A stretch of 64,000 nucleotides of DNA. Origin: Gemmatimonadales bacterium. GTDB taxonomy: Bacteria > Gemmatimonadota > Gemmatimonadetes > Gemmatimonadales > GWC2-71-9. The position numbers and the translations under genes were made by a program. The notes beneath the pieces were generated by a model that saw nothing but the letters and a program-made list of their open reading frames with translations, was not told the origin of the DNA and did not search any database. The DNA lies in the NCBI GenBank assembly GCA_037189525.1, contig JBBCJC010000001.1:512001-576000 (forward strand). Reading direction: 5' to 3'. Numbering within the stretch: position 1 is the first letter of the stretch; every line of letters starts with the position of its first letter. Shown piece after piece: positions 1 through 14,897 of this stretch.

Positions 1-3000
1 AAGCGGAGGGTTCCCGTTCGGGGGTCACGGCTCTCGATGTCATAACCGAGCTTGTCGAACTCGCGATCGACCGGCTCGAACCCAAGCGCCACTTCCTGCG
101 CCATCACGGCGGCACGAGCTCGGGCCGCCGCTGCCTGCGTGTCCGCGATCTCTCGGAGCTCAGGTGGCAGTTCGGTACCCATCATCTTAGCCAGCAGACC
201 GACGGGCACGACGACGACACCACCCACGACGACCGGTGGCATCGGGGTGATCTGTGCCTCGAGATCAAGCTGAGTAATCCTCTTCGCCAACCGCCCCTGC
301 AGATCATCCGCTCGCCGCCGTGCCTCCTGCGAATTGAGGCGAGCATTGGTCTTCCCAGCCTGCTCCTGGAGCCGAAGCTCCTGGGCACGGCGGTCCCAGT
401 GATTGATCTCTTTGACGAGCCGGTCCTTGACCGCAGCCTTGGCCTTCTCAATCAACCCCAACCGACGGCCTCGAACTTCACTGAGGTGCTCGGGAACGAC
501 ATTCTGAATTGCATACGCCTGCGCCTGTCGCTCCAGGTCTCGACCGATCCAGGCTAACTCAGGCCTGCGCAAGATTTCCTCGGCTCCCGGTTCCGCGGCA
601 GCGAGCGGCCGATAGTCCAGGTACGGCGCGTACTGGAGGTGCCGAGTCGGACCATCAGGCAAGAGCTCGACGTATAGCATCCGCTGGGAAATGGTTCGAC
701 GCTCGCCGGAGCGGGTTTGGCTGGCATCCTGAATTGCGTGGTCGAGGTAGAGCAACACACGCGGCGTTTCGGATGGGTCCTGCGAATCAACCAACACTGC
801 TCCACGCCGCAGCAAGTCGCGGTTTCGTTCCAGCGTAAGGTCAAGCGTGGCGTCTAGCAGCGGATGCCCGGGGCAAATGAATGCCGCCGGAATCTCGCCC
901 TGGGGCGCCAGCAGCTGCTTCTCGAACGCAACCCGCTCATAACGGGGCAGAACTGGCTCGCGAATACCAATGATGCGATCCCGGTTGCGAACGGGGGCGG
1001 GAACGTTGGTAACCTCGTAGCGTCGAGACTCACGCTGCCGGATCGTCCCGCCAACCTGCTTGAAGGCCTCGAGAAAGAAGTCCTCGATGTAGTGCGGCTG
1101 AAGGCGGCGAGCTTCCGCCCGTTCCATTTCTTCGCGGACCCGCATGACACGACTCACGTCCATCGCGTCCTGGGCGAGCGCCCGATCTTCAAGCAACCCC
1201 TGGAGGTGAGAACGGTCCACCGCATTCTCGACAACCCGGTTCAGCTTAGCCCGGACATCAGGCTGTTCACCGTACCGAATTGCTTCGATCAGCAAATCAC
1301 GGAGCGGCTTGCCGTCGAACTGCACCCGGCCGAGCACGTCAAACACCTGCCCGCCAAGAGCCTTTCGGGCCTCCTCCAGCTTCTCAAAGAGGGTGTGGTA
1401 GACGTCGCCCTCTCGAGTCTCTTCTGCCAAAAGATTCCATAGGTGGCAGACTTCCGTCTGGCCGATCCGGTGAATCCGACCGAAACGCTGCTCGAGCCGA
1501 TTGGGGTTCCACGGCAGGTCGTAATTGACCATGAGGTGGGCGCGCTGGAGATTGATCCCCTCGCCTGCCGCATCGGTCGCAATGAGAACCCGAACTTCGG
1601 GGTCGTATCGGAAAGCCTCCTGCGCCTTGCTTCGCTCCTCACGCCCCATCCCGCCGTGGATAACTACGACTGCTTCTGGCAGTCCGAATCGCGTCGTGAT
1701 CTTCTGTTGGAGATAGTTGAGCGTATCGCGGTGCTCAGTGAAAAGCACCAATTTCTGTCGTGGGGACGAAGCCGGTTTCGGGACGCCTGCTGACCCATAA
1801 GGTGGTGCAACAGGTTCAGCCACCGTATCCGAACGAGCCGGAGGTGTGAACACCTCGTCAAAGACTCTCGCTAGCTCGGCCCACTTGCGGTCCTCGCCAC
1901 TTCGCCGGACGGTGTTCGCCAGCCCTTCGAGACCAACCAGAATGGCGATTTCGGCTTTCAGCTCGTCGATGGTACGCGCGGCAGTGGCCTGGTCGAGAAT
2001 CTGCTCCTCGGCAGCTTGCACCTCATCTTCAGGAGCATCCTCGAGGTCCTCGACATCGTCAGCGTCGAGCAAAGGCCCCAGCGGAGCTAGTTCGATCCCG
2101 CCCCGCTGCATGAGCTCGAGTTCTCGCATCCGCTTTTCCAGCCGCTCGCGCCTTCTCCGAAGAGACTGGTAGATCGCTTCTGGCGAGGAGGCCAGACGCC
2201 GCTGGAGGATCGTAAGCGCGAATCCGACCGTCCCCGCCCGTTTCTCGTTTTCGAGCGCTTCGGCCCGGTTGAACTGCTCGCGAACGTAGGCGGTAACTTC
2301 GCGGTACAGCTGCGCTTCCGCTGCGGAGAGTTTATAGGGAACCGTGTACGCAATGCGCTCCGGAAACAGCGGCGTTCCGTCGAACTTGAGCAGCCGTTCC
2401 TTGACCATCCGACGCATCAGATCCGTCACGTCCTGGGTATGGACGCCATCCCTGAACTTTCCTTCGAAACGATCGCCGTCGAGCAGCGCCATAAACAACT
2501 GGAAGTCCTCTTCCTTGCCATTGTGTGGCGTGGCCGTCATCAAAAGCAGGTTGCGCGTCAAGGAGCCGAGCAACTGACCGAGACGATACCGCTTGGTGTA
2601 CTTGACCTCCCCGCCAAAAAACGTGGCCGACATCTTGTGGGCTTCATCGCAAACGACGAGATCCCAGCGACAGTCGGGGGCCTGAAGCTTCTGCTGAACG
2701 TCCTCGTCTCGAGAGAGCTTGTCCAGCCGGGCAATGACAAGATGGTTCTCGAGAAACCAGTTTCCCGTACGGGCCGCCTCGAGCTTGTCGTTGGTAAGGA
2801 TGTCAAACGGCAGATTGAACCGCTTGAACAACTCGTCCTGCCACTGCTCGGCAAGGCTACCTGGGCAGACGATGAGGCAGCGCTGGAGGTCACCCCGAGC
2901 GATCAGCTCCTTGATCAGTAGCCCGGCCATGATCGTCTTCCCTGCGCCGGGATCGTCGGCCAACAGGAAACGAAGCGGCTGACGCGGAAGCATCGATTCG

Positions 3001-3341
3001 TAGACCGCCGTGATCTGATGGGGGAGCGGGTCAACGAGCGAGGTGTGAACAGCTAGGACCGGATCAAACAGGTGAGCCAGTCGGATTCGGTTGGCCTCAG
3101 AGACGAGGCGGAACAAGGCCCCATCGCCGTCGAAGCTCCAGGGTCGGCCCTGCTCGACCACCTCGAACCGAGGCTCGTCGTGGCGATAGAGCAACTGATT
3201 GGCAACACGACCCGCAGGGTCTTTATACGTGAGTTCCAGAGCGTCTGACCCGAACCACTGCGTGGTTACCACAGTGATCAGGGCATCAGGTATGAGGCCG
3301 CGAATGATGGCGCTGGCCCGAAGATCCTCCAGTTTGCTCAA
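1..3341 (-). CDS. SNF2-family (SF2) helicase with C-terminal DUF3883-like domain; 3' end truncated by the window edge
   Basis: Translated by hand, partially (absent from the ORF track, consistent with no in-window stop). TTG start after a GGAGGAG SD. Motifs PLPHQ, LLADDPGAGKT (Walker A), CDEAHKM (Walker B), LMTATPHNGK. At the window edge GYDIESRDPRTGTLR, as in DUF3883. Confidence 0.9.
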   Translation of the reverse strand, partial: MSKLEDLRASAIIRGLIPDALITVVTTQWFGSDALELTYKDPAGRVANQLLYRHDEPRFEVVEQGRPWSFDGDGALFRLVSEANRIRLAHLFDPVLAVHTSLVDPLPHQITAVYESMLPRQPLRFLLADDPGAGKTIMAGLLIKELIARGDLQRCLIVCPGSLAEQWQDELFKRFNLPFDILTNDKLEAARTGNWFLENHLVIARLDKLSRDEDVQQKLQAPDCRWDLVVCDEAHKMSATFFGGEVKYTKRYRLGQLLGSLTRNLLLMTATPHNGKEEDFQLFMALLDGDRFEGKFRDGVHTQDVTDLMRRMVKERLLKFDGTPLFPERIAYTVPYKLSAAEAQLYREVTAYVREQFNRAEALENEKRAGTVGFALTILQRRLASSPEAIYQSLRRRRERLEKRMRELELMQRGGIELAPLGPLLDADDVEDLEDAPEDEVQAAEEQILDQATAARTIDELKAEIAILVGLEGLANTVRRSGEDRKWAELARVFDEVFTPPARSDTVAEPVAPPYGSAGVPKPASSPRQKLVLFTEHRDTLNYLQQKITTRFGLPEAVVVIHGGMGREERSKAQEAFRYDPEVRVLIATDAAGEGINLQRAHLMVNYDLPWNPNRLEQRFGRIHRIGQTEVCHLWNLLAEETREGDVYHTLFEKLEEARKALGGQVFDVLGRVQFDGKPLRDLLIEAIRYGEQPDVRAKLNRVVENAVDRSHLQGLLEDRALAQDAMDVSRVMRVREEMERAEARRLQPHYIEDFFLEAFKQVGGTIRQRESRRYEVTNVPAPVRNRDRIIGIREPVLPRYERVAFEKQLLAPQGEIPAAFICPGHPLLDATLDLTLERNRDLLRRGAVLVDSQDPSETPRVLLYLDHAIQDASQTRSGERRTISQRMLYVELLPDGPTRHLQYAPYLDYRPLAAAEPGAEEILRRPELAWIGRDLERQAQAYAIQNVVPEHLSEVRGRRLGLIEKAKAAVKDRLVKEINHWDRRAQELRLQEQAGKTNARLNSQEARRRADDLQGRLAKRITQLDLEAQITPMPPVVVGGVVVVPVGLLAKMMGTELPPELREIADTQAAAARARAAVMAQEVALGFEPVDREFDKLGYDIESRDPRTGTLR

Positions 3342-3761
3342 GTACGGACTCCTCCGATCAAGCCGAACGCCCGCGAGGAAAATCGTTCATGGGTGTGTCA
3401 TTGAGCTGACAAGTGGCCCGGACCGGGGCTCGCTGAAATTAACCCAACCCCAGCAATGACAAAAGGTTACAGCATGGCATTGACGAAGTCGATCCCCCTA
3501 TGCATTGGGCTTTAGGAGAGACTACCCACAACCGTGGCTGCCCACGCTCGGGATGCCGCTCAAGCATGCATTGCCTCGACCCCGTTAATCCACAAACCGG
3601 AAACCGAAACTTGGCAAAATAGGAGCCACTATGTTGGGCTATTTGAAGGCCAATTCGACGGAAATGGAATCGAGCGCTGGCGATGTGTAGAGGGGGCTTG
3701 ATCGACAATGCCGCCGGATGGTCGACAGTCCCTCCACAGCAATTCGGTAACCGCGCGGACA

Positions 3762-3846
3762 CAACTTTTGAGCATTTCAAATGTACGAAAGTTGCCAAGA
3801 CTGGCACGACTAAGTACTTTCGAAAATCTGAAATGCTGGAAAGTTG
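3762..3846 (+). promoter_or_regulatory. Sigma70-like promoter overlapped by a 33-bp imperfect inverted repeat (putative autoregulatory operator)
   Basis: TTGCCA (3792-3797)-N17-TACTTT (3815-3820). Arms 3762-3794 and 3814-3846 match at 26/33 positions as an inverted pair. Confidence 0.65.
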
Positions 3847-3849
3847 ACA

Positions 3850-5685
3850 ATGGCGCTCCATCTCGTCGGCGAAACTATCGACAAGGCACAGGCCCACACC
3901 ATGGCCCAAGCCGGCCGGCTAGTTCAGCTGATGCGCGGTATCTATGTGAATGCCAGCGACGATGTCGAAGAAACCGTCCTCCGACATGCCATCCGGATCG
4001 CCCGATACCTCTACCCCCGCGCCTACCTCTCGGCGGCCAGCGCCATCCTGCTCGGCCCCACCCGCGATGGCCGGCTGTTCCTGAGCGGGCGCAATGCCCG
4101 GCGGACGCGCCTTCGGGCACTGGAGATCATCCAGAACGTGGCGCCCGAGCATCCATCGACCGCCCCGGCGTTCATCAACGACGGCATGGGCGAATTCACT
4201 GTCGAGGTGTCCTCGATCCGGCAACGTTTTCTCGAGGCATTCCGCATCCGAGGCGAGCACGCCGCGTCGCTCGACGAGGCCATGCGTGAGGGCGTCGCCA
4301 GGCGTCTCGTCGAAGAGTACGGCACGCCGCAGGCCGCCGCCGACGCCGTCTGGCGCCTGGCACGGGACAACGCATGGTATCGCGAAGGGGAACGCGCCGA
4401 ACGCTTCCTGCTGCATCGGCCCACAGCCACGCCCCCGCGCAACAAAGCGGCGCTGGACCTGACGGTTGCCTGGCATGGCACGCCGGTAGGCCGCCTGATG
4501 CATGACGGATTCGAATGGCGTTGGTACAGTAACCCATGGAAAGCGCCACCACTGATCCGGCAAACCACCCCGGGCGCGCTACCGCCCTTCATCGTTTCGT
4601 TGCTACCCGAAGGCTGGCTGGAGTCCGTGCTCCGCAGCAGCGACGAGCGCGCGTTGCTGCGGTCCGGCAAGCGGTACATGTCCAACATCACGATCGTCGA
4701 GCAACCGAGCGAATTGACCGAGTTGCCGGCCGACATCCTGACGACGCCGCTGGCGCGCTTCACGAACGACGGCATCTTCACCGGGCACTACGCCGGTCCG
4801 GGGCGCGGCCCGCTCGAAGAAAGTTTCGAACGCAACCTCGCCGCGATCTTTGCGGACAGCCGCACGCCGCGCTTGTCGGGCATCCAGATCAAAGCGCCGA
4901 TGTTCCTCGCGGAAGACGGCTCCTTGTTGCCGAGTGAGGACCGGCCGTTCACCCATATCCTCAAGCCCGCTGGCACCGGCGGCTTCGAAGCGTTGCCGCT
5001 GATCGAGTGGCAGGCCCTAACGCTTGGCGCAGCAATCGGACTCGACACTCCCGCCATGGCGCTCGTGTCCATGCCGGACGGCTTGCCGCCCGCCCTACTG
5101 GTCGAGCGCTTCGACATTCGCCAGAGCGAGAACGACACGCGCCTGCTCGCGCTAGAAGACCTGTGTTCCGTGTTGGGTGTCCCCTCATCGGCTAAGTACA
5201 GCGGCAGCATCGAACGGGTGGCTCGCGCCCTCCGGCCGCTCTCGACCACACCGCACGATGACCTGCTCGTCCTTTTCCGGCGTGCACTGTTCGCGTGGTG
5301 CATCGCCGATGGCGACATGCATCTCAAGAACCTGGCGTTACTCAAGATCGCCGAACCGGGCAAGGCCGCATTCGAAAGTGTGCGGATGGCGCCGCTCTAT
5401 GACGCCGTCACGACCCGCGTCTTTCCCCATCTGACGCGAGACCGCATGGCGCTCATGATTAACGGCAAAGACGATCGACTGCGCCGTTCCGATTTTATGA
5501 CTATGGCTGCAACGATCGGGGTACGGCCAACCGACGCGAAACAGACCATCGACGATCTGACCGCGCGCCTGCGCACCGAGATTGGTACACTGACCCTGCC
5601 GACCATCGCCGTCGAGTCACGAACGGCCGACCGCGCGGCTGCCATGCGCCGACTCGTAGGGGAACGAATCGATACACTGGCATAA
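3850..5685 (+). CDS. HipA-family Ser/Thr kinase toxin with N-terminal AbiEi-like/DNA-binding extension
   Basis: FIVSLLPEGWL (HipA N-terminal coupled region), LSGIQIK, ILKP, LLVERFD, DGDMHLKN, MAPLYD. About 200 extra N-terminal aa with LMRGIY and YLSAASA. Confidence 0.85.
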   Translation: MALHLVGETIDKAQAHTMAQAGRLVQLMRGIYVNASDDVEETVLRHAIRIARYLYPRAYLSAASAILLGPTRDGRLFLSGRNARRTRLRALEIIQNVAPEHPSTAPAFINDGMGEFTVEVSSIRQRFLEAFRIRGEHAASLDEAMREGVARRLVEEYGTPQAAADAVWRLARDNAWYREGERAERFLLHRPTATPPRNKAALDLTVAWHGTPVGRLMHDGFEWRWYSNPWKAPPLIRQTTPGALPPFIVSLLPEGWLESVLRSSDERALLRSGKRYMSNITIVEQPSELTELPADILTTPLARFTNDGIFTGHYAGPGRGPLEESFERNLAAIFADSRTPRLSGIQIKAPMFLAEDGSLLPSEDRPFTHILKPAGTGGFEALPLIEWQALTLGAAIGLDTPAMALVSMPDGLPPALLVERFDIRQSENDTRLLALEDLCSVLGVPSSAKYSGSIERVARALRPLSTTPHDDLLVLFRRALFAWCIADGDMHLKNLALLKIAEPGKAAFESVRMAPLYDAVTTRVFPHLTRDRMALMINGKDDRLRRSDFMTMAATIGVRPTDAKQTIDDLTARLRTEIGTLTLPTIAVESRTADRAAAMRRLVGERIDTLA

Positions 5686-5968
5686 CGGAATCGAGCCTGG
5701 AAATTGATAGCTGAGGGAAGCTAGGGAGTTTCGTTTCGAGCCTGCAACCTCTCGCTTAGCAGCCAGCATTGTATGACTCCACAGTACATCAACGGAGATA
5801 CAATCAAACGCGCCTGCCTTTCGGGCTAGGGTATCGCAGTCCGGTTGGTCTGCGAAGCGTAGTTCAGACAAGCAACCTACCGTATGTCCACTAAATCGAT
5901 GCGGCCCTAAGACAAGAGCAGGTTCGTCGACGCTCGTTAGCTGGCCTGAATAATGTCGGACGATTGCA

Positions 5969-6925
5969 CTACCACGGAATCTCGGCACCAAGGTAAAGAA
6001 GCTTTGCTTCGAGTTCTTTACGTTCGCGGCTCCGTGCCATTTCGCCAGACTCCGAAACGGCAAGGAGGCCTGCCTGCCTCGCGACATCTCTTGCCCGTTT
6101 AACATCACCTGCGATGAGGGCCCCGAGTACGTCGACCTCCACTCTCGAAAGTGAGACAGAGTGCAGTCTGTAATCACCGAATGCCTCCCAAACAATCGGC
6201 ACCCACCGCGCAACCACCTGTTCGCCGATCAACTGTGCATAGCTTCGAATCTCGTATTGAGCGTGCGTGTCCATCCTAAGCAGGAGAAAGTGGAGCAGAT
6301 TGTGGAGGTCGATCTTCCAGTATGCTTCTGTATATGTAGAAAGAGGTAGGTCTTTCCGCGCTTGCTCACGTGCCACTCCAGCGTTGAGACGGGCTTCATA
6401 AACACGCCTCAGTTCCCGGTGGATGGCCTGTTCCTCATCTGACAAGACGGAACCGATCGCCAGAGGAAGAAATCCGTCACTACCTTGCCGGTTCTCACCG
6501 GCCTGTTGGCGCCATCGATCCGCAGCCGTCTGTTCAGCGGAGTCAATCGCGACGGAATAGCGAGTCGAATATTCGTTGACACTCGCAGTTCTATGGCGGA
6601 TCCATTGCCGCCATACATCCATAGGTGCGCGCACGTGCAACTTGATCTCACACATCTCAAACGGCGTAGTGTGATGATGCCGCATTAGATACCGAATCAA
6701 ACCGCGATCCTCATGCACACGCTTCGTTCCAACACCGTAGGAAACGCGAGCTGCCTGCACCACAGAGGCGTCGTTTCCCATATAGTCTACGACCCTCACA
6801 AATCCGTCATCGAGAACGTGGAGCGGAACACCGAGAATCGCGTCCAGATCGGGCGTGATCGGCCGACCGACCGGCTCCGGCTTAGATACGCCACCATCCG
6901 CCGCTCCCCTCACCGGCTCAGTCAT
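5969..6925 (-). CDS. thyX: Flavin-dependent thymidylate synthase ThyX
   Basis: ARVSY, HTTPFE, RQWIRHRTASVNEYSTRY (ThyX signature), REQARKDLP, HAQYEIR. Confidence 0.95.
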   Translation of the reverse strand: MTEPVRGAADGGVSKPEPVGRPITPDLDAILGVPLHVLDDGFVRVVDYMGNDASVVQAARVSYGVGTKRVHEDRGLIRYLMRHHHTTPFEMCEIKLHVRAPMDVWRQWIRHRTASVNEYSTRYSVAIDSAEQTAADRWRQQAGENRQGSDGFLPLAIGSVLSDEEQAIHRELRRVYEARLNAGVAREQARKDLPLSTYTEAYWKIDLHNLLHFLLLRMDTHAQYEIRSYAQLIGEQVVARWVPIVWEAFGDYRLHSVSLSRVEVDVLGALIAGDVKRARDVARQAGLLAVSESGEMARSRERKELEAKLLYLGAEIPW

Positions 6926-6937
6926 CGTAGCTTCACC

Positions 6938-8035
6938 TTACCCCCCTAGCTCCAAATACGCCCGTCTCTCTCTCGTTGCGATGTCATCGACAAGCGCCTT
7001 CAGGCGTCCGAACGACAACATCCACCTCTGACCCGTTCCGCTACTGTATTGGGGAAGAAACCCCTCAGGCGAGGGATACTCAATGTGGATATCAGGATGA
7101 AGGGCCTTGGCAAAGAAACAACCTACGGCCTGCATCTTGCTTCCAGCGGGTGCGAGTAGTACACGGTGTGTCTCTGAGAGCTCCCAATACAGCTCGACCA
7201 AGAGAGAAACTGTTTCCCGATAGTCCAGGGTTGACACGGCCCGGATAGGAAGCTCGTCGCCCAGCGCATCGGCTACACTTGGGTTGTCGTTCATCCACTC
7301 TCGGCATACTTCGGCGTGAATCCAAGCTGTAGCTTGCTGCCGCCAATGATGGACGGGTGGACGCCCGTTGATCAGCAGAAGGCGACTTGGGTACACGGTG
7401 TTCAATAAGACTTGCGTTAATGTATCGTTAAAGGACATGAAGACGACCGCCGCAGTAGGCTGACCCTGCATCGCGACACTCGAGAGACTTCCAACCCGGA
7501 CGACACCATGAACGCCAGTATAAATCTGAAGCGTGGGGCGATGGATCTCGTTGCGACGTCGAGCTGTTTCGAATTCCTCATGACTAGGGCCGTAGATCTC
7601 AGCCTCCGAGTAGAGGAGGATCACTTCACGGTCAAGCTCCAAGCATACCTTCAACGTGAGAATCACAGCCAGCTTGGACATCGTCGAGATATCAACTACA
7701 ACCCGCTGCGCGTTACGTTGCGCCAGTCGTTCCCGCAAGGCTCCCTCATACCCCGCCGGGTTGAACCGATCGTACTCGACGATATCCGAACTCTGTGTTT
7801 CGACGCCGCAGGCTTTTAATCCGTTGCGGACGTCAGCTAGCCTGTTGCCCTCGTTGTACGGTAGATAGGTAAGTAGAATCGCAGATGCCCCCGGATCTGC
7901 CACTAGCAGATCTAACAGCGACAACGTCCTGTCTTCGAATCCTGGTGCATGTACGATGACGTCCTGGGGGCCGATGAGTATCCGGTTTACAGGTGAAAGG
8001 ACAGGCAGCGCAGCCCCTAGGTCGTGCAAAATCAT
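6938..8035 (-). CDS. Hypothetical protein with two Rossmann/CARF-like repeats
   Basis: 365-aa ORF, TAATG overlap with the upstream gene, GAGGAG SD. Repeated strand-loop-helix patterns VVVDISTMSK and VLLAPAGSK. The fold call is inference. Confidence 0.7.
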   Translation of the reverse strand: MILHDLGAALPVLSPVNRILIGPQDVIVHAPGFEDRTLSLLDLLVADPGASAILLTYLPYNEGNRLADVRNGLKACGVETQSSDIVEYDRFNPAGYEGALRERLAQRNAQRVVVDISTMSKLAVILTLKVCLELDREVILLYSEAEIYGPSHEEFETARRRNEIHRPTLQIYTGVHGVVRVGSLSSVAMQGQPTAAVVFMSFNDTLTQVLLNTVYPSRLLLINGRPPVHHWRQQATAWIHAEVCREWMNDNPSVADALGDELPIRAVSTLDYRETVSLLVELYWELSETHRVLLAPAGSKMQAVGCFFAKALHPDIHIEYPSPEGFLPQYSSGTGQRWMLSFGRLKALVDDIATRERRAYLELGG

Positions 8036-10746
8036 TACGACTCCTCACCTACGTTACCAGAAGTATTCTTCTCAGACAGAATATCGTCGTACGTGCGGTC
8101 GTACTCGATGTCTTCTCCCTCTTCATCAAATAATTGCATCTGATCACTTGGTACGCGTTTTACACTGAACCTATCCTTAAACAGATCAGGCTCCAAGAGA
8201 AGGAGGACAAAATCATCGCAAGTGAGTTGGACACTATCACGCTTTGACAGGGCGAGCGTGCAGTATGGCAGTAGCAGACGACGCAGGTACAGGCGCGGAA
8301 CAAAAGCCCCCCGAACGCTTTTCCCTCGACTATCTCGCATAAACAATCCATAGCGGATTAGATCGCGGTAAATTTCGCGCGCAAGGCCTTCAATCCTAAA
8401 ATCATCCACAATCTCAAGTCGAAATGCCATTCTCGGCACTTCACGGGGCACAGAACCTTCACGAATCGTGTAGGCAGGTCCAGCCAGCAATTGGGTTGCT
8501 GCGTCCACGAAAGCCTCCACTATCGCTTTTAGGTGGTCACCATAGTGACCTTGAAGTGCATACTGACCCCTAGCTTCGTTGAGGACCGCCAGTTCATGCT
8601 TGACAACATCGGGGCTGGTTGGCTCGTTTCGAGTATGTGAATTCAGCCACTCGCCACCTCGATTGCGAAACACACGGTCCTGAACGATGGGGTCTACAGG
8701 TGTCACGACGATCTCCTCACCTGGATGACGTGGCCCCTGATCAAGAACGTCGGTGATCAACTGGATCATTGTTCGCGTGTCGCCCGACCAAAGATTCGCG
8801 AACACGTCCTCGCCGTGGTAAAGTACGCGACCTCGCGACCGGCCCCGTCGCTGCGACTTCGCCGATACCGGGGGAGGCTCTGATGACGGTACCCCTTGGT
8901 GAGAAAGGCGGAGCCGACGAGCAAACTCTGTCTTGGTGATGCCGAGATCACCAAGCAAGCTTCGAAGATCTACCTCGCTATTCCGAACACGTGGATCTAT
9001 GCGAAGACGCCGAGAAAGTACCTCTCGAAGGAAAGCAAGTCGATCAGTGTCAGCAAGAAATAGGGACTCTTCTCCCATGTCGACAAGCTGGTAATCATCA
9101 CCGTCCTGTAGCTGCTTTCCGCTGGAGTCCTCCGGCACGAAGGTACTCCACGCTTCAGTGGCCACCTTTGCAAGAAAATCAGGCGATCGCTGCAAAAAGA
9201 GGCGATTCAGGACGCGTTGCATCGAGAGTGGTATTCTCGGAGTAGAAAAATCGTCAACGAACAACAACGCGGATCTATCGTTCATCCACGGGCAGCAGCC
9301 TCGTACCTGCTGGACAAAACGGGGGAGCCAGCGGTGCTGCGACATTTCACTCAAGCCGGGAAACAAGGGTCCTTCGGCGTCCGGAAAGCTCCACTTGATC
9401 TCTTCGAGAACAGCACGATATCGCTCAAGCCGATCCTCACCGACAACAAGTGCTTGGAACGTCTGCGGGACAAGCCATCGATGGACAAGGTCTAAAAGGG
9501 CTTCTGGCGGCGGGTCCCTAAAGCGGCCAGCACGCGCGGACTGAACTGTGAGCAAATCGCCGAGGACACAAAGGTTCGCATAGCAGGTTAACCTGGCCTG
9601 ATCTTCGACGCTTGGAACCTCTGGATAATTAGCGAATGCGTCCGCAAAATCGTTCGCATTCACATACAAAGCAACGAATCGGTCCGGAAGGTCGGCGACC
9701 TGTCCGCATTCTACTATCAGGCGTTCACTCAGCCGCCTGAACAGCATCGTCTTTCCGCATCCACGCGGACCAGTGACAACGGTTGGTATGTCAAGCGCAA
9801 GAATCTTTGACCGAGCTGGCACTGTTGGAACAAACAGCCGTCGCCACCAATCCCACCGTTCCCCTATCATTTCGCTTACTTGGAACTGGCCTACGGTTGG
9901 TTTCTCGTCCCCTGTCTGAACACCCTCAATTGCATCTGGACCAAGATTTCGATTTGCATGCCCATTCGTAGCTTGCGCCGAACGCTTGATATCCGCCAGA
10001 TGCCTGAGCAAGTCAAGTGGCTTTCGTCGCTCAGGGCCGGTTCCATCCCGCAGAAGCTTGCCAAGGTCTCGCTGCATCGAACGGAGGATGTGACGATGTG
10101 TGGGCGTCGCGACCGCATGATTCACGCGAGCGATGATACCGTCGATTATTCGCGCGAGACCATGGTAGTCGTCTTTGAGCTCAACAGCACCGCCCGTAAC
10201 ACCGTACCCGAAATCGGAGACATAAATCTCCGCACGCGGCCGTAAGGTATCGTCAAGCAGTGCCTCAGTTGGAGTACCAATGAGAATATTTCCCGAGTGC
10301 AAATCGCCATGACGCGGCACCCCCTTCACCTCACAAGCGTGCAGCACTCGCAGGATCCGCTCAACAACAGCGAGCAGGAATCCGGCGTCTACGGTACGGA
10401 CCCTTTGGAGGTACTGTGCGAGATTTTCCCCGGGCGGAACGAAATCCCAGACCGTATATTGGCATAGGTGAGTGCTACCCCCAAGGGATATACTTGCTGG
10501 CCCAAGGTCATGGAAGTGTACAACGCCGTCAACGCGATCTAAGCTGGTGACTTTCCTAAGCTCGGCTTCCCACCCACTCTTTAGACTGAAGGTTAATTTT
10601 ACAGCTCGAATAGCGTCTGGAAATTTCTCAAGGGAAGCTCGGTAGACGTAACCAATCTTACCTGCACCGATGAATTCGTGCAGCACCAAATTTCCCACAC
10701 TTTGGCCGCTCAAGTTACGGCACCAGTCGTCAGGAGGCCGAGACAT
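8035..10746 (-). CDS. Protein-kinase-like domain fused to a P-loop (ORC/CDC6-like AAA+) ATPase
   Basis: Kinase motifs: IGAGKIG, AVK, HGDLHSGN, DFG. ATPase motifs: GPRGCGKT, LLFVDD, downstream SGDTR. Confidence 0.85.
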   Translation of the reverse strand: MSRPPDDWCRNLSGQSVGNLVLHEFIGAGKIGYVYRASLEKFPDAIRAVKLTFSLKSGWEAELRKVTSLDRVDGVVHFHDLGPASISLGGSTHLCQYTVWDFVPPGENLAQYLQRVRTVDAGFLLAVVERILRVLHACEVKGVPRHGDLHSGNILIGTPTEALLDDTLRPRAEIYVSDFGYGVTGGAVELKDDYHGLARIIDGIIARVNHAVATPTHRHILRSMQRDLGKLLRDGTGPERRKPLDLLRHLADIKRSAQATNGHANRNLGPDAIEGVQTGDEKPTVGQFQVSEMIGERWDWWRRLFVPTVPARSKILALDIPTVVTGPRGCGKTMLFRRLSERLIVECGQVADLPDRFVALYVNANDFADAFANYPEVPSVEDQARLTCYANLCVLGDLLTVQSARAGRFRDPPPEALLDLVHRWLVPQTFQALVVGEDRLERYRAVLEEIKWSFPDAEGPLFPGLSEMSQHRWLPRFVQQVRGCCPWMNDRSALLFVDDFSTPRIPLSMQRVLNRLFLQRSPDFLAKVATEAWSTFVPEDSSGKQLQDGDDYQLVDMGEESLFLADTDRLAFLREVLSRRLRIDPRVRNSEVDLRSLLGDLGITKTEFARRLRLSHQGVPSSEPPPVSAKSQRRGRSRGRVLYHGEDVFANLWSGDTRTMIQLITDVLDQGPRHPGEEIVVTPVDPIVQDRVFRNRGGEWLNSHTRNEPTSPDVVKHELAVLNEARGQYALQGHYGDHLKAIVEAFVDAATQLLAGPAYTIREGSVPREVPRMAFRLEIVDDFRIEGLAREIYRDLIRYGLFMRDSRGKSVRGAFVPRLYLRRLLLPYCTLALSKRDSVQLTCDDFVLLLLEPDLFKDRFSVKRVPSDQMQLFDEEGEDIEYDRTYDDILSEKNTSGNVGEES

Positions 10747-10752
10747 ACGCAG

Positions 10753-11898
10753 CTATCGCTTGTGGTAAATCAGCACAGTTTCGTGCTTTGTTCCACGGCA
10801 CTCGCGTCGGGAGCGCCGAATATCAGGAATACTGTCCTCGTAAGAGGACGTCAGGCGATAGTCCCTCAAACGCGGAGCATTTGCGAATACTTCTTGAACC
10901 AGCTCTGCCGTACGCACGGGCTGTGATACCCTACGTGTCACGTCTCCCACCACGAGCACGAAACAACCACCTGGTAGGATGTTCCCAGCAAACCTATCGC
11001 ATACAGCCCTGAGGAGGAGGCGAAACGCCTCGGCTCGACCATGGCCACTGAGTTCCAAACCCTTTGGCAGCGTCTTATTGATAAACCAAAGCCGAAGACG
11101 ATTGTCTCGGACGTAGTCCAACTCATTCATATAAGGCGGGCTCGTAATCACCGCGCGAATCCCGCGAACTCGCGGAAACTCGCGCGCATCGCCCGTAACC
11201 ACACGACGAGGCTCTAAGTACGGCGAGGGTTGCCGCCGAAATGTTCGGAGAATTTTCGCTTCCAACCTTGGGAGCACATCGCGGGGCTCGTACAGGTCTG
11301 GGTATTCTCCTCGCGGGAATTTCCGCTCGCGGAGGTAGGGCACCAAGTGACTACTTGGATATGACAAGAACCCGGGCCGCTGGTGATGTAGTATCCCTAG
11401 GAGGCTCGCCAGTAGAAACTCGTCACCTAGTCTCACACAGGCATCGCGAAACGCTAGTGCAGATCGAAGCGTTTCCGGATGGAAGAATCTTCGAACCCAA
11501 GGAGGGACCGTTCTAAGGTCCTGGTGGGCAAACCGATTTTGGGCAACTGTCCATGCATGATGGAGACGCTTCTGAGCCGCTGCTATAGATCGAGGGGGAA
11601 ACAGTTTGGCGCGAGTAAGTAGAACCGCGTACGGATTCCAGTCACCGACCACGACTCGACGCTGCAATGCTGCGGCTTCAAGAGCAACGACACCACACCC
11701 ACAAAAGGGATCAACAATCAAGTCTCCCCTTGCCGTTTGCGAACTGATTAACTCACGCGCCATCGACGTTTTCATCCGGCCGATGTATGGTGCGAGTTGA
11801 TGTAGGCTAATGTCGGTTGCTGTGGTCGAGCCCCTTGACCATGGAACCTGACGCATGACGCTACCAAGTTTTGGTGCCGCGGGTTTCCGTTTGGGCAA
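10753..11898 (-). CDS. DNA amino-methyltransferase (SPPY motif, likely N4-cytosine; alpha-like motif order)
   Basis: DPFCGCG (SAM-binding motif I) lies N-terminal to ITSPPY (motif IV). TTG start; alternative ATG at 11856. Confidence 0.85.
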   Translation of the reverse strand: MPKRKPAAPKLGSVMRQVPWSRGSTTATDISLHQLAPYIGRMKTSMARELISSQTARGDLIVDPFCGCGVVALEAAALQRRVVVGDWNPYAVLLTRAKLFPPRSIAAAQKRLHHAWTVAQNRFAHQDLRTVPPWVRRFFHPETLRSALAFRDACVRLGDEFLLASLLGILHHQRPGFLSYPSSHLVPYLRERKFPRGEYPDLYEPRDVLPRLEAKILRTFRRQPSPYLEPRRVVTGDAREFPRVRGIRAVITSPPYMNELDYVRDNRLRLWFINKTLPKGLELSGHGRAEAFRLLLRAVCDRFAGNILPGGCFVLVVGDVTRRVSQPVRTAELVQEVFANAPRLRDYRLTSSYEDSIPDIRRSRRECRGTKHETVLIYHKR

Positions 11899-12540: not shown

Positions 12541-13716
12541 CTACCCGGCCGGTCGTGCTTTCCAGGCGGCCAAAATCTCGGCCTCACGTTTCATTTGCTG
12601 ATCCATCGACGCTGGACCAGTCAGGCCGGCGCCCCTGAGGCCGCCACGCATGGCGCTCCGACGCTCCTCCGGTTGTTCCTTCCACCACGCCAGGGTGTCA
12701 CGGACAGTGTCGGCAAATGGCCGGAATGCCATGCCATTGGCGAAACAGCGTACCGGTGAGAGGCGGGCGAGGCCGTGGTAGGGGCCTTCTTGATCGACCC
12801 ATGGCATCAGGCTGACCGGCGGGACGCCTGATTCCGCCAGGAACGGCCCGGGTACCCAGGTCAGCTCTGGCTGCGCACCGATCGCGGCGGCGATGCCCTC
12901 GAGCATCTGGCCCATTGTCATGCCGTCTTTGGGCCCGATGGCATGGAAGGTATTGGTCAGCCGCTGTTCCACGCAGTGGAGACTGAAATCGGCGAGATCG
13001 CGCGCGTCGACGTACTGGACCGGATCGCCCGCGCTGCCAAAGGCCATCATCTCCCCGCCGCGGTCGATCCGGGCCGGGTAGTAGGTGAAACGGTCAGTGC
13101 CGTCACCAGGGCCTACGATCAGCCCCGGTCGGGTGATGGTGTAGCGGCCAGGGAATGCGGCCCGAACTTCCTCCTCGCAGGCCCCCTTGAGCTGCCCGTA
13201 ATACCGGCCCACTTCCTCCGAGCCCGGCTCCGGGAGTTCAGCTACCTGCGCATCTTCGTCGATGAAGCCCTCGGGCCAGGCGTTCTCGAACATGGCTTTG
13301 TAGAGACCGGCCGTCGACGTGAACAGGTAGTGGTCCGCTGCATCCTTGAGGAGTTGGGCGGAGTCCCGCACGTGCCGCGGCACATAGCCTGAATTGTCGA
13401 GGACCACGTCCCAGCGGTGGCCTTCCAGCGCTTTGAGGTTGCCGTCACGATCGCCCTCGAGCTTCTCGACCTCTGGAAAGAGTTGCGGATTGGTCTTGCC
13501 ACGGTTGAAGATCGTCACCTCGTGCCCCCGATCGAGGGCAGAGCGCACCATGTGCGGGCCGAGGAATCCGGTGCCGCCGAGGATGAGGACCTTGAGCGGT
13601 TTTGCGGAGTCTTTGCCGGCGCAGGACGACAGTGCAGGCAAGAGCGACATTGCCCCTGCGGCGGCAACCGAGGCGCGTACGAATTCTCGCCGGTTGGGAA
13701 CTCTTGGAGTATGCAT
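12541..13716 (-). CDS. NAD-dependent epimerase/dehydratase (atypical SDR) with Tat-like signal
   Basis: NRREFV twin-arginine motif, GGTGFLG, YGQLK, RPGLIVGP. Confidence 0.85.
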   Translation of the reverse strand: MHTPRVPNRREFVRASVAAAGAMSLLPALSSCAGKDSAKPLKVLILGGTGFLGPHMVRSALDRGHEVTIFNRGKTNPQLFPEVEKLEGDRDGNLKALEGHRWDVVLDNSGYVPRHVRDSAQLLKDAADHYLFTSTAGLYKAMFENAWPEGFIDEDAQVAELPEPGSEEVGRYYGQLKGACEEEVRAAFPGRYTITRPGLIVGPGDGTDRFTYYPARIDRGGEMMAFGSAGDPVQYVDARDLADFSLHCVEQRLTNTFHAIGPKDGMTMGQMLEGIAAAIGAQPELTWVPGPFLAESGVPPVSLMPWVDQEGPYHGLARLSPVRCFANGMAFRPFADTVRDTLAWWKEQPEERRSAMRGGLRGAGLTGPASMDQQMKREAEILAAWKARPAG

Positions 13717-13961
13717 CGGCTCTGCCTGTAGGGTTCGGGTGAGTCGGTGCCGCGGGAGGAGGGCGGCACTCACACGTCGGGTGGTGGCTGTCGGCGTTGA
13801 ATGTACTGCCTCATCGCTGAATTCACCTCAGCCGCGGCGGGCCGTGCCCCTATCCGGGATTCCGTACCCCCGCCCCCACACCCGGTTCCGCAGAATCGAG
13901 TTGCGGATCACGGGGTGCTGCCCCATGGTTGAGTGGAGAACGGATACCATGAGAGCCGAAA

Positions 13962-14897
13962 ATGAATCCGATGAGAGCTGGCGTCGCACTCCTCTGCACC
14001 TTTGCATCTGCGGTGCCGCCCGCGCGGGCGCAGGACGCTGCCGCGGTGGCCGAGGCAGTGGTCCAGACCGGAGATGTGGATCTGTTCTATCGGGTCTATG
14101 ACCGCGCCGGCGGGAAACCGTCGGCCGAACAGCTCCAGCACGAGTACCTAGACCGGGGCTCGGACGGGCTGCATCTGTTCGCCCGCCTGCGCGACATCTC
14201 CGGCGAACGGATCGCCGCAACCTTGAAGGCCAATCCTTCCCTGTATTCCGATGCCAAGCGTTGCCTGGACGTCCTGCCCGCGGCCCAGAAGCGCCTGGAG
14301 GCGGCGCTGCGCAACTTGGGACGCCTGTATCCGGCTGCGCGCTTCCCACCCGTGACCATCGCGATCGGTCGCGGCAAGCCGGTAGCGATAGGTGCGCCAG
14401 CTACCGGCATCCAGGTTGGACTCGAGGCGCTGTGCGCGACTGAATGGCTCAACGCCGACGTCGAAGACCGGATCGTCACCGTGCTCGCGCACGAGTACGT
14501 CCACGTCCAGCAGGTGGGCGCTCGCGAGCTGCGCGAGAAGGAAACGCCGACGGTGCTCGAGGTGTCGCTGCGCGAAGGCATCGCCGAGTTCGTCGGTGAG
14601 CTCATCGCCGGCGAGGTTGCCTATTCCCGGAATGCCGCCGCGGCTGTCGGGCGCGAGTTGGAGATCGAAACGCGCTTTGCCGCCGATCTCGACAAGACCG
14701 ATCTTTCGGACTGGGCCTACAATGCCACCCCCGCCACCCCCGGCGACCTCGGTTACTGGGCAGGCTACCGGATTGCCAAAGCCTACTACCAGCATGCGTC
14801 CGACAAGGTCCGCGCCGTGCGAGAGATCCTGGAGATGTCGGATCCGAAAGCGTTTCTGGCGCGGAGCGGCTGGTACCCGGGCATCGTGCTCAAATAG
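13962..14897 (+). CDS. Secreted putative Zn-dependent protease (DUF2268-like)
   Basis: Signal peptide, HEYVH zincin motif, EGIAEF, DLGYWAGY. Confidence 0.7.
   Translation: MNPMRAGVALLCTFASAVPPARAQDAAAVAEAVVQTGDVDLFYRVYDRAGGKPSAEQLQHEYLDRGSDGLHLFARLRDISGERIAATLKANPSLYSDAKRCLDVLPAAQKRLEAALRNLGRLYPAARFPPVTIAIGRGKPVAIGAPATGIQVGLEALCATEWLNADVEDRIVTVLAHEYVHVQQVGARELREKETPTVLEVSLREGIAEFVGELIAGEVAYSRNAAAAVGRELEIETRFAADLDKTDLSDWAYNATPATPGDLGYWAGYRIAKAYYQHASDKVRAVREILEMSDPKAFLARSGWYPGIVLK

Follow-up and report, generated by a model that had tools for sequence, protein, structure and literature searches.

The 64,000-nucleotide stretch of Gemmatimonadales bacterium DNA analysed here (contig JBBCJC010000001.1, positions 512,001 to 576,000 of the forward strand; hereafter the window) carries on its minus strand a compact operon, the second gene of which encodes a protein kinase fused to an ORC/CDC6-like ATPase (Table 1). 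The reading that we favour, though it commands slightly less than even confidence, is that the kinase would be the effector of an abortive-infection system that senses nucleotides and is gated by the ATPase; that the system has a defence role at all is considered probable. According to the proposed scheme, an antiviral system that arrests growth would be built around the kinase-ATPase and the CARF6-type protein encoded after it. The CARF pair, bound to the ATPase, would recognize a danger signal of nucleotide type; switching and clustering of the ATPase would follow, and the kinase, likely with no need for activation-loop phosphorylation, would phosphorylate a host target and thereby halt the infected cell. 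The DNA methylase at the head of the operon would likely mark host DNA and may also be the source of the ligand, through methylated nucleotides freed when a phage degrades the chromosome, and the thymidylate synthase ThyX would be an optional helper draining dUMP into dTMP.

The gene neighbourhood was followed through 71 loci, made up of 13 genome loci, the best 80 of 162 metagenome loci and the window, collapsed at 90% identity. Wherever at least 500 nt were available downstream of the kinase-ATPase gene (59 of 59 loci; 12 were too short), the next gene encodes a CARF6-type protein, which had been overlooked in the first-pass annotation of this DNA and is the only invariant partner of the kinase-ATPase. 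In the window the ATG of this gene overlaps the kinase-ATPase stop codon (TAATG), and residues 22-343 of its product align with positions 14-303 of the 308-position PADLOC model CARF6--CARF_CARF_CARF (PDLC01917, E 3.4e-11). The pairwise identities of the two proteins are correlated, with a rho of 0.85 as against 0.40 for the methylase, the pairs not being independent. The operon occurs in several phyla at about 60% conservation and, beyond CARF, methylase and ThyX, no further neighbour recurs as a part of it in the 71 loci; in the chosen part of the other neighbours that was scanned (48 and 74 proteins), Mrr, RusA-like, GmrSD, ParA-SIR2 or a CARF-AEP fusion are carried by single loci. A scan for promoters and terminators gave nothing above chance level.

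The first-pass annotation had described a minimal kinase with a very short activation segment, devoid of an APE motif, fused to an ORC/CDC6-like ATPase, and all the motifs that it listed are present in the translation. In the kinase these are GAGKIG (27-32), AVK (48-50), HGDLHSGN (146-153) and DFG (178-180), the last followed by 11 residues and then DDYHGL (192-197), which leaves 12 residues to the conserved alphaF-type D193, with no APE. Conservation was examined in a close set, namely the best 120 of 340 homologues (8000 candidates), query included, at 59-78% identity, and in a distant one: among representatives clustered at 50% identity, 169 proteins matched with E up to 1e-30, and the full-length set (n=55) consists of the query and the 54 matches of at least 780 aa among 150 listed, shorter matches being omitted. 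K50 is found in 117, E62 in 118, and D148, N153, DFG and D193 in 119 each of the close homologues, the remainder being gaps, and the spacing from DFG to D193 is 12 in 116, 11 in 2 and unmatched in 2. In the distant set K50, E62, N153 and D193 are retained in 55/55 and D148 in 54/55, with a spacing of 8-15 that equals 12 in 40/55. The APE motif occurs in none of the 120 close homologues and nothing APE-like in any of the 55 distant ones, so the short segment noted earlier proves to be family-wide. Because this pattern is kept across close and distant homologues, down to about 21% identity, the activation segment of about 12 residues is, on the evidence of the alignments, an old family trait and not a sign of decay; a dead or decaying kinase is ruled out by the near-invariant catalytic residues in both sets.

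The family profile matches Hanks-type kinases of known structure (ULK1, StkP, PknA) with E 1e-25 to 1e-21, the match stopping at about position 185, just through DFG. Of the Hanks-type features, the Gly loop, beta3 Lys, alphaC Glu, catalytic D..N and DFG are present; the full segment ending in APE and the HRD..K loop are lacking, the latter being represented here by HGDLHxxN. The kinase is accordingly classed, from its motifs, as one predicted to work like a Hanks-type Ser/Thr protein kinase, yet not as a canonical member. It resembles the PD-T4-6 and Mad6 kinases in being a defence-linked kinase, but their PADLOC models match the kinase part alone (E about 1e-5). A Ser or Thr lies within the activation segment in 54 of the 55 full-length sequences, so the loop might still be phosphorylated, and control of the kinase by clustering instead is what we infer.

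The assignment of the second part to the ORC/CDC6-like ATPases also stands, with a match to PF24389 well above the Pfam cut-off (E 2.4e-21, 76.5 bits against 27) that was recovered in 21/21 alignment members of the family, and a PADLOC match to CARF6--CARF_STK_AAA (E 8e-19). The motifs are an arginine-bearing Walker A (GPRGCGKT, 326-333), a Walker B ending in DD (LLFVDD, 494-499) and SGDTR (654-658), followed by a basic C-terminal region (RGKSxRG..RLYLRR) and an acidic variable tail. Walker A, DD, SGDTR and the P-loop arginine R328 are conserved in 120/120 of the close set; in the distant set R328 is kept in 54/55, the Walker A lysine K332 in 53/55, DD in 55/55 and the SGDTR arginine in 23/55. 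Regional identity reaches 0.92 around Walker A and 0.82 in the basic C-terminal region. The AAA+ fold is predicted from Pfam family membership: sequence searches of the PDB returned no solved relative of the ATPase (best E 0.019), nor any of the CARF protein or methylase beyond short motifs, and the ESM Atlas search gave no model, only same-family or unnamed clusters. Gating through oligomerization, as the first-pass annotation suggested, would be plausible for such a STAND-like ATPase.

A small family in which one chain unites a Zn ribbon, a kinase, an AAA+ domain with a P-loop arginine, CARF and wHTH is described in the available part of Makarova 2014 (PMC4012209), and the present protein is, judged by profile comparison, a split form of this fusion. 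Three loci with fused kinase-ATPase-CARF genes were found here, and extra searches gave no others. The fused forms (PADLOC PDLC01925) share with the operon proteins the short-loop kinase, the GxRGCGKT ATPase and a CARF-type C-terminal part, hhalign giving 100% for the kinase-ATPase and 98.9% for the CARF protein against the fused C-terminus, at about 19-23% identity; they differ in that the operon kinase-ATPase has no Zn ribbon and the CARF protein is a separate, next gene. The linked genes differ as well, the operon being associated with an SPPY-type methylase and ThyX, whereas a pyrimidine-nucleoside-phosphorylase-like gene lies co-oriented upstream in 2/3 fused loci and a C5 methylase within a few kb of all three. 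The two phosphorylase-like proteins (L163 8209-9423 and L164 11072-12286), 40% identical to each other, match solved phosphorylases (E 5e-24) and belong to a divergent 404-aa family with 725 matches at E up to 1e-30, some of them maybe ordinary phosphorylases; the gene was found in 0/94 close-family loci. Both it and the C5 methylase may be mere island neighbours of the fused genes. The fused gene on a Loktanella plasmid has a PUA-like + calcineurin gene just upstream (L100 4199-6606).

In more distant relatives the place of the kinase is occupied by other domains. Rhizobium pRLG201 shows the order C5 methylase, HD-CE, ORC-CDC6-like, CARF6, facing a ThyX that is 46% identical to the operon ThyX and falls outside its branch, and the Burkholderia plasmid bgla_2p the order PRTase-CE, ORC-CDC6-like, CARF6, with HAD and NADAR genes; we take CE to stand for conflict effector. 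The operon shares with these pfam09670_new_CARF_CARF/PADLOC CARF6 systems the order effector, ORC-CDC6-like ATPase, CARF6, and with the Rhizobium locus also a cytosine methylase and ThyX, and differs from them in holding in the effector slot a kinase fused to the ATPase. What stays constant is thus the ATPase with CARF6, whereas the position ahead of the ATPase changes from system to system; the accessory genes encode nucleoside or sugar-phosphate enzymes, PfkB-family and HAD-SIS neighbours appearing in other rows of the accessible portion of the 2014 supplement. Since HD-CE or PRTase-CE fills the kinase's place, the kinase is likely the effector, a role already proposed in the first-pass annotation. 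The Rhizobium locus also led to a pairing of m4C with ThyX and m5C with phosphorylase being dropped, as it combines m5C with ThyX. A triplet of methylase, 847-aa kinase and CARF_CARF in Methanocorpusculum labreanum, listed in the 2014 supplement, was matched to the operon by order, annotation and size only. In the literature examined, no experimental characterization of the HD-CE, PRTase-CE or Methanocorpusculum loci was found.

The methylase gene, which ends 6 nt before the kinase start, matches Pfam N6_N4_Mtase (E 1.6e-8) and PADLOC MTase_II (E 2.2e-20), and its SPPY motif, kept in 46/48 linked copies, predicts N4-cytosine specificity by a rule that we assume to hold. An SPPY-type methylase is linked in 29/30 loci with enough DNA on both sides; it stands directly upstream on the same strand in 43/54, and is otherwise divergent, downstream or convergent. 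Clustering of the 71 loci revealed no recurring nuclease, with one Mrr, one RusA-like protein and two GmrSD among the scanned neighbours, so that the cognate endonuclease of a type II restriction-modification system does not recur beside the methylase. It is exchanged more freely than the CARF gene, which weakens the earlier suggestion that the methylase is a phosphorylation partner of the kinase. Members of this methylase family are found at the head of a ParA + SIR2 pair as well, within the operon at L013 (1695-4844) and without it in a Salmonella plasmid record (L152 6920-9979).

The operon ThyX (Pfam Thy1 E 2e-49; TIGR02170 above cut-off) belongs to a set of 28 linked copies, all with the motif RHRx7SxR, present in 28 of 46 loci. 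Its absence from the other 18 means that ThyX cannot be a general substrate of the kinase, as had been supposed. The source genome encodes ThyA elsewhere and has no ThyX other than this one, which was matched in 0/95 sampled genomes of the same family; a housekeeping ThyX in this genome is ruled out on both counts. More broadly, 8/9 genomes whose operon carries ThyX have a second thymidylate synthase. Phylogeny was taken from quick and FastTree trees, the latter with a long-branch warning; in the quick tree, where the stand-alone comparison comprised 29 copies, all from the window's phylum, the 28 operon copies and two others form one branch (SH-aLRT 99). One of these two, at L155, adjoins a distant system whose methylase is 48%, kinase-ATPase 25% and CARF protein 25% identical; the other (L105) is unlinked to the system, and no further thymidylate synthase was found in its genome, for which reason the clade is likely made up of ordinary dUMP methylases. 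The L155 system (2536-8769, G067:C56) is a second, distant copy in a genome already holding a close one, and is faced by ThyX and a RusA-like protein 45% identical to one after CARF in L009. A thymidylate synthase domain is known from one validated defence system, as the consulted part of its description reports (PMC13092281).

Table 1. Position of the operon genes, their domains and two neighbouring elements in the window
Feature	Position	Strand	Remarks
Alpha-order amino DNA methyltransferase	10753..11898	-	First operon gene; DPFCGCG motif I then TSPPY
Kinase-ATPase open reading frame	8035-10746	-	903 aa; second of four tightly packed operon genes
Protein-kinase domain, aa 1-~258	9973..10746	-	12-residue activation segment, no APE; predicted effector
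ORC/CDC6-like ATPase, aa ~284-860	8035..9897	-	Pfam PF24389; PADLOC; hhalign
CARF6-type (tandem CARF-like) protein, 365 aa	6938..8035	-	PADLOC, hhalign, linkage; predicted ligand sensor
FAD-dependent thymidylate synthase ThyX	5969..6925	-	Intact motif; optional fourth gene, 12 nt past CARF stop
HipA-like kinase, 613 aa	3844-5685	+	HipA_C E 1e-39, weak AbiEi-type N-terminal region; converges on thyX
Hma system (HmaA, B, C)	1-3341	-	In the island of the operon

The operon lies in a defence island and is mobile. No orthologue was found in 60 relatives, apart from two weak kinase-only matches, and local GC is 0.55-0.61 against 0.655; carriers numbered 5 or 6 of 401 in one wider genome sample and 1 clear case of 401 in another, 2-3 candidates being scored per genome. 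One copy sits on a viral contig and another on a Bradyrhizobium plasmid, with kinase and ATPase annotated as two overlapping genes. The two parts also stand in separate frames near the linker, by natural split or frameshift, at L099 (8001-10696), L044 and L068, and a Mutator-family transposase interrupts the gene at L011 (8629-9867), where an MTHFR-like gene (13225-14220) converges on CARF at the usual place of ThyX. At L001 (348-7723) a second methylase, two unknown genes, HAD and a Mom-family gene run into the kinase-ATPase from upstream, and at L066 (8700-12410) CARF is fused to an AEP-like domain, with radical SAM and calcineurin-like genes coming next. The Hma system (G000:C1 499175-515341, L162) has a GmrSD_N gene inside it and a 1485-aa NACHT protein behind.

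The effector reading draws on the CARF linkage and co-divergence, the fusion to the ATPase in three relatives, HD-CE and PRTase-CE in the effector slot, mobility, the defence-island neighbours, the methylase kept with no recurring nuclease, the scarcity of Cas10 and SMODS, and a published case of a trigger derived from the methylome, m6-dAMP and PUA-Cal-HAD, in the available text of PMC12871103. Several observations weigh against it. The CARF-like halves give no significant mutual alignment (hhalign 0.1%), though their S-K motifs pair, and the putative tandem CARF label comes from PADLOC labels and the 2014 table; Walker B is DD rather than DE, so ATP hydrolysis may be slow; and the strongly conserved basic region of the ATPase could read DNA directly. 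Two loci picked by hand carry the effector-slot argument, and of these the Rhizobium one was chosen for its ThyX, the sole Thy1 row in the accessible 2014 supplement. ThyX tracks lineage, being present in 27/38 closest-lineage loci and 1/8 more distant ones, and at L056 ThyX is present while no methylase lies within about 5.9 kb either side. Finally, Makarova 2014 (PMC4012209), in the part consulted, proposed signal transduction by the kinase rather than killing.

The alternative that weighs most, though we consider it unlikely, is a self/non-self system reading DNA by the logic of Pgl/type 2 BREX, in which the basic ATPase region would bind unmethylated, foreign sites, the methylase would protect the host, the kinase would be the effector and CARF a scaffold or brake. 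The near-constant methylase and the conserved basic region suit it, as does the proposal, in the accessible part of preprint 10.64898/2026.10.19.760177, that ORC-CDC6-clade ATPases are DNA sensors, dual DNA and nucleotide sensing being put forward there for another ORC-CDC6 system. PglW, as far as PMC12839542 was available, likewise joins a defence-linked kinase to a STAND/ORC-like domain with a methylase partner; its ATPase is described as inactive and C-terminal, however, and the operon has no PglZ or PglY. The methylase itself speaks against DNA reading: it is readily exchanged, is better conserved at L155 than the ATPase, travels also with ParA-SIR2 and is missing from the Burkholderia PRTase-CE locus as annotated, and the invariant partner is CARF. 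Less probable still is that the kinase is a relay or small-molecule kinase, acting on partners, regulators or a nucleoside or nucleotide and tuning pyrimidine metabolism, and not a toxic effector. Its short loop, missing APE and HxDLHxxN are reminiscent of atypical kinases such as Bud32, RIO and ABC1, and there is a weak Pfam match to APH (E 0.025); kinase-mediated signalling was the suggestion of 2014, and accessory genes of the wider family (ThyX, phosphorylase-like, PfkB, HAD) are nucleoside or sugar enzymes. Yet the profile finds its best structural relatives among Hanks-type protein kinases, the 71 loci hold no other recurrent candidate effector, and ThyX is often lacking.

Rated marginally lower again is the idea that the operon is a mobile module for addiction or stress dormancy and plays no part against viruses, ThyX being a passenger acquired once. 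The sporadic, mobile distribution beside HipA-like and other toxin genes, the near-restriction of ThyX to one lineage and the unlinked L105 copy would agree with it; the defence-island neighbours, the ThyX beside the 25%-identical L155 system, that of another lineage beside the HD-CE version and the redundancy of ThyX in most genomes argue the other way. Characterized CARF domains bind cyclic oligoadenylates, and each CARF half has a lysine (K121, K300) at what we take to be the motif position, so the pair might be an orphan receptor reading cyclic oligonucleotides of type III CRISPR or CBASS encoded elsewhere in the genome. This is very improbable: a Cas10 palm above cut-off was found in 3/14 and SMODS in 2/14 carrier genomes, and neither in the source genome (98% complete), where a cyclase would be expected for an ancillary effector of type III CRISPR or CBASS, other genomes being possibly incomplete. 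Moreover, the pfam09670_new_CARF_CARF rows of the 2014 table (27 rows among 29/71 places) are marked, in the part available, as having no CRISPR-Cas nearby.

Returning to nucleotide sensing, the usual cyclases are absent from most carrier genomes, and the ligand would therefore likely come from the infection itself; the cytosine methylases and pyrimidine enzymes (ThyX, phosphorylase-like) recurring beside the family hint at a pyrimidine-nucleotide trigger. In one specific, self-primed version, which we regard as a long shot, m4C would be placed in the host chromosome by the system's own methylase, the methylated (or deaminated) pyrimidine nucleotide would be released as the phage breaks that DNA down and be read by the CARF pair, the loop-less kinase on its ATPase switch would stop the cell, and ThyX, or the phosphorylase in fused relatives, would set the threshold. 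A similar logic, a methylase-marked host nucleotide freed on infection triggering abortive defence, may be shared with PUA-Calcineurin-CE-HAD, of which the available part of PMC12871103 shows a PUA sensor, a dNTP-depleting effector and a demonstrated ligand, hypothesized here; no domain is shared. The parts and the fused architecture are already in print as predictions, and neither a description nor a test of the methylase-kinase/ATPase-CARF-ThyX operon turned up in the literature search, whose coverage did not include Makarova 2020 and Nicastro 2023, where it may be described; no ligand for CARF proteins outside CRISPR was found in the literature examined.

If the self-primed version were true, CARF would be sensing a pyrimidine deoxynucleotide in place of a cyclic oligoadenylate, and ThyX would have a role in defence. 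With this compact operon, which offers clean point mutants for every part, three questions become testable together: the signal sensed by a CARF pair that has no cyclase, the control of a kinase lacking an activation loop, and the reason for a second thymidylate synthase in a defence module.

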